Below are positions 44,660 through 44,725 of a DNA stretch of 64,000 nucleotides, one piece after another. The notes beneath the pieces were generated by a model. The model ran no database searches and was not told the origin of the DNA. It worked only from the letters and a program-made list of their open reading frames with translations. Within the stretch, counting starts at the first letter, position 1. Each line of letters begins with the position of its first letter. The stretch lies in assembly GCF_022846255.1 (NCBI RefSeq), contig NZ_AP025682.1, one strand, 5' to 3'. Source of the DNA: Escherichia coli (GTDB taxonomy: Bacteria; Pseudomonadota; Gammaproteobacteria; Enterobacterales; Enterobacteriaceae). The translations under genes were made by a program, and so were the position numbers.

Positions 44660-44681
44660 ACAGTCAGTTTGTAAGTCAGAA

Positions 44682-44710
44682 AGCCGCCGACATGTTCGGC
44701 GGTTTTTTTT
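44682..44710 (+). terminator. Rho-independent terminator after nuoN
   Basis: GCCGCCGA-CATG-TTCGGCGG followed by T8. Confidence 0.85.
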
Positions 44711-44725
44711 GGTGCCCTGACACCA

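Follow-up and report, generated by a model that had tools for sequence, protein, structure and literature searches.

The nuoN/yfbM junction at positions 44660-44725 of the window, by which we mean the whole 64-kb stretch of Escherichia coli DNA that was analysed, is best explained as the normal, vacant state of the boundary where the nuo operon meets yfbM, so that no event of the strain's own is needed. According to this explanation, to which we give a probability of about 0.65 as a whole, the site carries the empty allele of a long-standing presence/absence polymorphism of Escherichia, and the segment that is present or absent is a fast-evolving block centred on yfbN that is old at this locus. 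With its short gap between nuoN and yfbM, the window shows a kind of difference between strains that was already known.

Results

The junction and the nuo terminator

The features of the site and of its surroundings are collected in Table 1. The NuoN protein of the window has 100% amino acid identity to that of K-12, and the matching genomes annotate the gene as nuoN, while YfbM is 98.8% identical to its K-12 counterpart at the amino acid level and its stop codon reads TCA on the plus strand (44726-44728). An identical copy of the spacer occurs in E. coli strain 377323_2f (L002). An earlier note, made from the letters of the window, had placed the two stop codons 66 bp apart with a hairpin as the sole feature between them, and the ORF list and the sequence agree with it.

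Table 1 Features of the nuoN-yfbM site and its neighbourhood in the window
Feature	Position	Strand	Basis
nuoN, 485 aa, last gene of the nuo (NADH:quinone oxidoreductase) operon	43202..44659	+	ORF; TAA stop 44657-44659
Spacer between the convergent nuoN and yfbM stops, 66 bp, 'empty' allele	44660..44725	.	Sequence and ORF list
Putative intrinsic terminator of the nuo operon	44680..44710	+	Folding; kept in relatives
17 nt TTTGGTGCCCTGACACC absent from K-12, which has the 2561-bp yfbP-yfbO-yfbN block instead	44708..44724	.	BLAST breakpoints and junction sequences
yfbM, 167 aa, intact, DUF1877 protein	44726..45229	-	ORF; Pfam PF08974, E 3.7e-35
yfbL (M28 peptidase) pseudogene; an 8-bp deletion breaks it into two ORFs	45332..46286	-	ORFs 45332..45706 and 45687..46286
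108 bp in place of 3087 bp of K-12 (yfbK and most of elaD)	46242..46349	.	Alignment to K-12
5' remnant of elaD, first ~34 codons	46350..46463	-	Alignment to K-12 elaD from 2382713

The hairpin has the core GCCGCCGA / CATGT / TCGGCGG at 44683-44702, followed by a run of eight T at 44703-44710; its arms lie at 44683-44690 and 44696-44702 around the 5-nt loop CATGT (44691-44695), and the 7-bp G/C-rich core of the stem (CCGCCGA/TCGGCGG) can be lengthened by A-U pairs to 13 pairs. Counted from the G/C-rich core it starts 24 nt past the nuoN stop, and with the A-U extension 21 nt past it. The predicted fold has a free energy of -18.6 kcal/mol over 45 nt (z -3.3) and of -27.1 kcal/mol in a 76-nt context (z -4.3), where none of 200 shuffled sequences was as good. 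The identical hairpin sequence is found in K-12, E. albertii, E. whittamii, and the genome L004, and E. fergusonii and Superficieibacter have an equivalent hairpin with a T run 3' of nuoN. With its stable GC-rich stem-loop, its U run, and a position behind the operon that is conserved in relatives, the element has the features by which intrinsic terminators are predicted, and it probably serves mainly as the terminator of the nuo operon; bidirectional termination is possible but not indicated. Transcription of nuoA-N would then end at the conserved GC-rich hairpin and U tract, and the convergent yfbM ends 15 bases further on. The arrangement resembles that of other intrinsic terminators between convergent genes, with a GC-rich hairpin and a T run directly after the end of an operon in a short common spacer, but differs from it in that, read on the yfbM strand, the hairpin has a less stable predicted fold (-12.9 kcal/mol) with no more than CUUUCU behind it. 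A simple consensus-based terminator scan of the spacer reported no site, perhaps because the A-U extension of the stem consumes part of the T run. We also considered a small RNA or a riboswitch in the spacer and rejected it, as the Rfam search of the spacer gave no family at gathering score and its sub-threshold matches overlapped the hairpin.

Comparison with K-12 and the neighbouring genes

The full window is collinear with K-12 at 97-98% identity, and two large differences stand out, namely the block between nuoN and yfbM and the replacement of 3087 bp with yfbK and elaD by 108 bp. The earlier note had stated that yfbP, yfbO, and yfbN separate nuoN from yfbM on the K-12 map; the order in NC_000913.3 is yfbL, yfbM, yfbN, yfbO, yfbP, nuoN, so that the statement was correct. 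Its view that the window comes from a non-K-12 strain likewise held, given 98.2% identity over 40.9 kb together with the two structural differences, and so did its remark that elaD and yfbK are missing, which the alignment to K-12 confirmed. Apart from these, the REP-like palindromic array in the dedD-cvpA intergenic region (window 3726-3767) shows a small rearrangement relative to K-12, with 42 bp in the window against a 29-bp overlap in the K-12 alignment.

At the nuoN-yfbM site, K-12 positions 2387439..2389999 (2561 bp) align in place of the 17 nt at the end of the window spacer. The left breakpoint falls inside the T run of the terminator, leaving K-12 with five T, and the right breakpoint lies 1 nt past the yfbM stop. 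The GC content of the block is 39.8%, compared with 52.2% for the whole window, 55.7% for the nuo flank on the left, and 45.5% for the yfbM-yfbL flank. Among its proteins, YfbN gave a weak UBA-like match, YfbP a weak TPR match, and YfbO no Pfam match, and an NCBIfam search with all three returned nothing. A paralogous relationship between YfbO and YfbM was discarded because the two share no similarity (E 4.4).

On the other side of yfbM, the 8-bp gap in yfbL falls at nucleotides 600-607 of the K-12 gene. The N-terminus of the window yfbL is also unlike that of K-12, and L002, the closest complete genome, has the gene annotated as a pseudogene, with an internal stop. Across yfbL, the identity of the window to K-12 drops from 98% to 92-94%. 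The retention of a 5' remnant of elaD argues for a deletion at elaD-yfbK, and L002 has an annotated 111-bp deubiquitinase pseudogene at the same place as the remnant. Researchers have found that elaD is subject to presence/absence polymorphism in E. coli (PMC1847702; PMC12575377), being absent from all B2 and G strains examined and present in >90% of A, B1, C, D, E, and F strains (PMC12575377). Judging from the absence of elaD, the window may come from a B2/G-type lineage or one near it. The nuoN-yfbM site is like the elaD polymorphism in being a neighbouring variable segment of the same 6-kb stretch, in a window that also lacks elaD, but differs from it in that a 5' remnant is left at elaD and none at nuoN/yfbM. 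As to relatedness, no complete E. coli genome was closer than 99.2% over the nuo operon (30000-44700), and the window nuoN was about 98.6-98.7% identical to that of all E. coli compared, whereas yfbM and rbn were 100% and 99.8% identical to those of strain 377323_2f; as read from the sequences, this contrast suggests a mosaic or a poorly sampled lineage. The draft genome GCA_000488495.1 encodes an identical NuoG, yet 38 of 4733 bases differ.

State of the site in E. coli and related species

A 1-kb query across the junction showed the empty site uninterrupted in 4303 of 5426 complete E. coli genomes (about 79%), O157:H7 strains included. The K-12 block was present in about 1015 of them (985 at 99% identity or more, 3 at 95-99%, 24 at 80-90%, and 3 at 60-80%), but these counts are inflated by K-12 laboratory derivatives, many of which are among the listed carriers, and the resulting 19% overstates the natural frequency of the block. 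A second type of insert, 1681 bp long and 85.7% identical to K-12, carries yfbO and yfbN without yfbP (L007) and is found in roughly 24-27 E. coli genomes.

Empty sites were also found outside E. coli. E. whittamii (L005) and L004, which is labelled E. coli at an identity of only 92.7%, align straight across the junction, and their spacers TTTTTTTATGGTGCTCTGATACC and TTTTTTGTGGCGCCCTGACACC are clearly homologous to TTTTTTTTGGTGCCCTGACACC of the window. For E. albertii, an exact-protein look-up of the type-strain YfbM showed a 63-bp spacer with the same hairpin at 5 of the 6 places shown, and at the sixth an IS200/IS605-type transposase lies in the spacer; this look-up settled the state of E. 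albertii, whose contig in a scan of representatives of the species stopped 8 bp beyond yfbM. That scan yielded only 4 loci, the representatives of E. coli, E. marmotae, and E. ruysiae not being among them, and several taxa are represented by one genome each. The 15-17 nt that follow the T run in the window spacer are common to the other Escherichia species. Between the window and the empty alleles of other species, the flanks are 91-92% (yfbM) and 95-96.5% (nuoN) identical, which is the normal divergence between species, and nothing points to a recent sweep of the empty allele across them. In the Salmonella-type locus, yfbN is missing and a decayed yfbM follows nuoN; this yfbM lies in an 888-bp uncalled stretch (L030 7459-8346; blastx 36.8% over 125 aa, E 2e-18).

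Insertion sequences have struck the 63-66-bp spacer independently, namely the IS200/IS605-type element of the E. albertii-type genome (L018 5505-6278) and, in E. coli HKUOPY1, an ISEcB1 in the hairpin region (L008 4526-6036). In two further E. coli genomes (L009, L010), IS5 and IS1 adjoin deletions that remove yfbM or more.

The earlier note had offered, as one of two options, that this strain carries a clean deletion, and the distribution of the empty junction, with homologous forms in E. albertii, E. whittamii, and another Escherichia, contradicts it. A loss of yfbN-yfbO-yfbP in the strain or its immediate lineage might seem attractive in a neighbourhood that is losing genes, since the adjoining elaD-yfbK segment looks deleted, with a 5' elaD remnant, and yfbL is decaying through its 8-bp frameshift. 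However, the spacer holds no remnant of the block, it is identical or nearly identical in thousands of genomes of many lineages, and the nucleotides after its T run are common to other species, so that we regard such a deletion as extremely improbable.

Occupied sites, too, are found outside E. coli, in cryptic-clade Escherichia, E. fergusonii, and Superficieibacter. In a set of 5.8 billion proteins, all named relatives of YfbN belonged to Escherichia or, with 46-48% identity, to Superficieibacter. In E. fergusonii, nuoN and its terminator are followed by yfbN (70% aa identity), a gene for 191 aa, and yfbM; in Escherichia sp. E2748, nuoN is followed by a 409-aa gene, yfbO, yfbN (87% aa), and yfbM; and in Superficieibacter, nuoN and the terminator are followed by yfbN (46% aa), yfbP (61% aa), and yfbL (63% aa). 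Escherichia sp. MOD1-EC7003 has a yfbN-like insert with the same right junction, of which about 1.1 kb was seen, and it appears to be of the E. fergusonii type, since 1126 bp of it match the E. fergusonii block at 83% identity. Apart from the K-12 type, all occupied alleles have their block starting immediately behind the conserved T run and ATGGT motif. YfbN identity to K-12 declines with species distance in the same way as the DNA identity of rbn, which is 84% in E2748, 76% in E. fergusonii, and 68% in Superficieibacter. The order of the block after nuoN is yfbP(-) yfbO(-) yfbN(+) in K-12 (L001 9440-12000) and yfbN(+) yfbP(-) in Superficieibacter (L023 5671-7745); this swapped order on unchanged strands indicates that the block has been rearranged too. 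Superficieibacter and Salmonella are at about the same distance from E. coli, with nuoM-nuoN DNA identities of 87.8% and 89.1%, respectively. Because orthologs of yfbN and yfbP lie directly after the nuoN terminator of Superficieibacter, the block is more likely an old resident of the site than foreign DNA that first entered the K-12 lineage.

Some further features of these loci deserve mention. The 191-aa gene of E. fergusonii (L020 6712-7287, minus strand) has a sub-threshold match to SMI1/KNR4 (SUKH-1), with E 2.4e-4 and a score of 22.2 bits where the cutoff is 25.4. The SUKH-1 family includes immunity proteins of polymorphic toxin systems, and the match raises the possibility that orphan immunity-like genes are arrayed in the variable block. 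Between yfbK and rbn, where K-12 has elaD, a gene with CheW and receiver domains is present in E. fergusonii (L020 9984-10967), Superficieibacter (L023 10626-11627), and the Salmonella-type locus (L030 10169-11170). The rbn gene itself (RNase BN; window 46650-47567) diverges unusually fast: E. coli shares 76% identity in it with E. fergusonii and 84-86% with the cryptic-clade genomes, as compared with 95-97% for nuoN.

Two observations speak against the old-resident reading. The most distant Escherichia sampled, E. albertii, has the empty site, so that an empty ancestor of the genus with later import is conceivable. Moreover, the YfbN proteins of the two E. coli occupied alleles are 79% identical to each other, whereas those of K-12 and E2748 are 87% identical; the E. 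coli alleles are more unlike each other than the alleles of K-12 and another species, with which simple vertical descent in E. coli fits badly, and this suggests that at least one E. coli occupied allele was imported.

Tests for mobility and junction signals

A search for repeats in the K-12 block and in the yfbO-yfbN variant found no direct or terminal inverted repeats that pair the two ends; the earlier note had proposed to look for direct repeats at the junction, and none are present. A 16-nt repeat in the yfbO-yfbN variant (4008 / 5606) lies 37 nt inside the left junction and was set aside as chance, because recombination across it would not yield the observed empty spacer. No integrase, transposase, or other mobility gene was found among yfbN, yfbO, and yfbP, and a tRNA scan of window positions 38000-52000 found none. 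A phage search with the K-12 block gave no match, and in the plasmid search the sole full-length match at 100% was to one 365-kb E. coli 'plasmid' record, the rest being 150-bp matches at 70% identity on plasmids of Providencia, Proteus, and Morganella; with no phage match and no real plasmid source, we rejected a phage or plasmid origin of the block. A defence-system role was rejected as well, since neither NCBIfam nor a PADLOC search with YfbN, YfbO, YfbP, and YfbM (no match at E 0.01 or better) supports it.

These results bear on the other option of the earlier note, that the K-12 genes are lineage-specific insertions. On such a reading, E. coli would descend from an empty ancestor and low-GC foreign yfbP-yfbO-yfbN would have entered a phylogroup A-like lineage by illegitimate recombination or with a mobile element. 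Within E. coli the claim stands in so far as the block is confined to a minority of genomes and is near-clonal there; its low GC content relative to both flanks, the emptiness of most E. coli, E. albertii, E. whittamii, and L004, and the lack in K-12 of the 17 spacer nucleotides common to the empty alleles also favour an insertion. Against it stand the diverged yfbN blocks at the same nucleotide position in other E. coli, E2748, MOD1-EC7003, and E. fergusonii and the yfbN and yfbP of Superficieibacter, and the block lacks target-site duplications, terminal repeats, an integrase, a tRNA, and a recognisable phage or plasmid source. We consider such an insertion unlikely.

The sequence at the junction was also compared between empty and occupied alleles. 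The likeness by eye of CCCTGACACC to CCCAGACATC, and of TGGTGC to TTGTGC, was considered as a signal of polarity and dismissed, neither being significant by shuffling. When 13-16 nt of the empty spacers were compared with the right ends of the occupied alleles, 78 of 2000 shuffles were as good in the best case and more than 250 of 2000 in most. As these similarities are not significant, the junction is silent on the direction of gain or loss.

The same comparison is relevant to recurrent deletion, by which an occupied ancestor would have suffered the same loss in E. albertii, in the group of E. whittamii and L004, and in E. coli through the repeat ATGGTG / ATTGTG that flanks an E. fergusonii-type block. 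E. fergusonii does have both copies, ATGGTG behind its T run and ATTGTG 15 nt ahead of the yfbM stop, and the E. albertii spacer opens with ATTG where other empty spacers open with ATGG or TGG. But five matching positions out of six, in about the expected place, carry little weight, the likeness of the empty spacers to the right end of the E. fergusonii allele is not significant, and the K-12, yfbO-yfbN, and E2748 alleles have no right-hand copy of the repeat, which makes repeated loss by this route quite unlikely in our judgement.

Discussion

We return to the reading that we prefer, in which an old block segregates at a fixed site. Under it, the block would be older than the genus Escherichia and would have been lost at least once, long ago, and its alleles may now be moving between lineages by homologous recombination through the conserved nuoN and yfbM flanks. 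Both the empty and the occupied alleles appear to be old. The import of a pre-existing Escherichia allele by flank homology is possible, and we count it within this explanation.

The site can be compared with two known kinds of variable region. Perna and colleagues and Hayashi and colleagues, in their comparisons of the K-12 MG1655 and O157:H7 genomes in 2001, reportedly described strain-specific islets ('K-islands'). The block resembles these in being a few-kb, low-GC block of uncharacterised y-genes that breaks the collinear backbone and that K-12 has, whereas O157:H7 and most other strains lack it at this point, but it differs in that it extends beyond the K-12 lineage, with diverged alleles occupying this site in other E. 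coli, in three further species of Escherichia, and in Superficieibacter, as expected of an old segregating locus rather than a one-off acquisition. With integration hotspots and genomic islands it shares a variable content at a fixed point between core genes, a low GC content that is unlike the backbone, and IS elements nearby; it differs from them in having no mobility gene such as an integrase, no adjacent tRNA, no attachment-site or other repeats, and no phage or plasmid genes.

As to function, the YfbN family extends beyond Escherichia, and 192 cluster representatives of it were found at E 0.001 or better. Distant relatives were tried as a clue to function and abandoned, because the neighbours of the three that were looked up had nothing in common and none of the three lay near nuoN. 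According to a 2025 preprint (10.1101/2025.09.29.679331), K-12 becomes resistant to phage N4 when yfbO or yfbL is knocked out, and complementation makes it sensitive again. In an earlier preprint, yfbN and yfbO were among the 'blockers' in a retron toxin/antitoxin screen, although yfbO was below the significance cut-off and was kept for its linkage to yfbN. Because the window lacks yfbO and its yfbL is frameshifted, and in view of the N4 results with the knock-outs, we speculate that the nuoN/yfbM boundary might be a genus-wide polymorphism long kept by phage selection, that the empty site together with the dead yfbL may form a natural N4-type resistance genotype, and that the same pressure may lie behind the fast divergence of the yfbN block; we consider this very doubtful.

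The practical value of the finding is small. It does indicate that the K-12 gene order is unfit as a default at this site, where adjacency of nuoN and yfbM is the common state of E. coli, and that yfbN, yfbO, and yfbP, being accessory genes, can be absent without calling for any special explanation. All three are uncharacterised, and they belong to an old, fast-evolving block at one fixed site in several Escherichia species, with yfbN and yfbP also in another genus, and this may help to assign their function.
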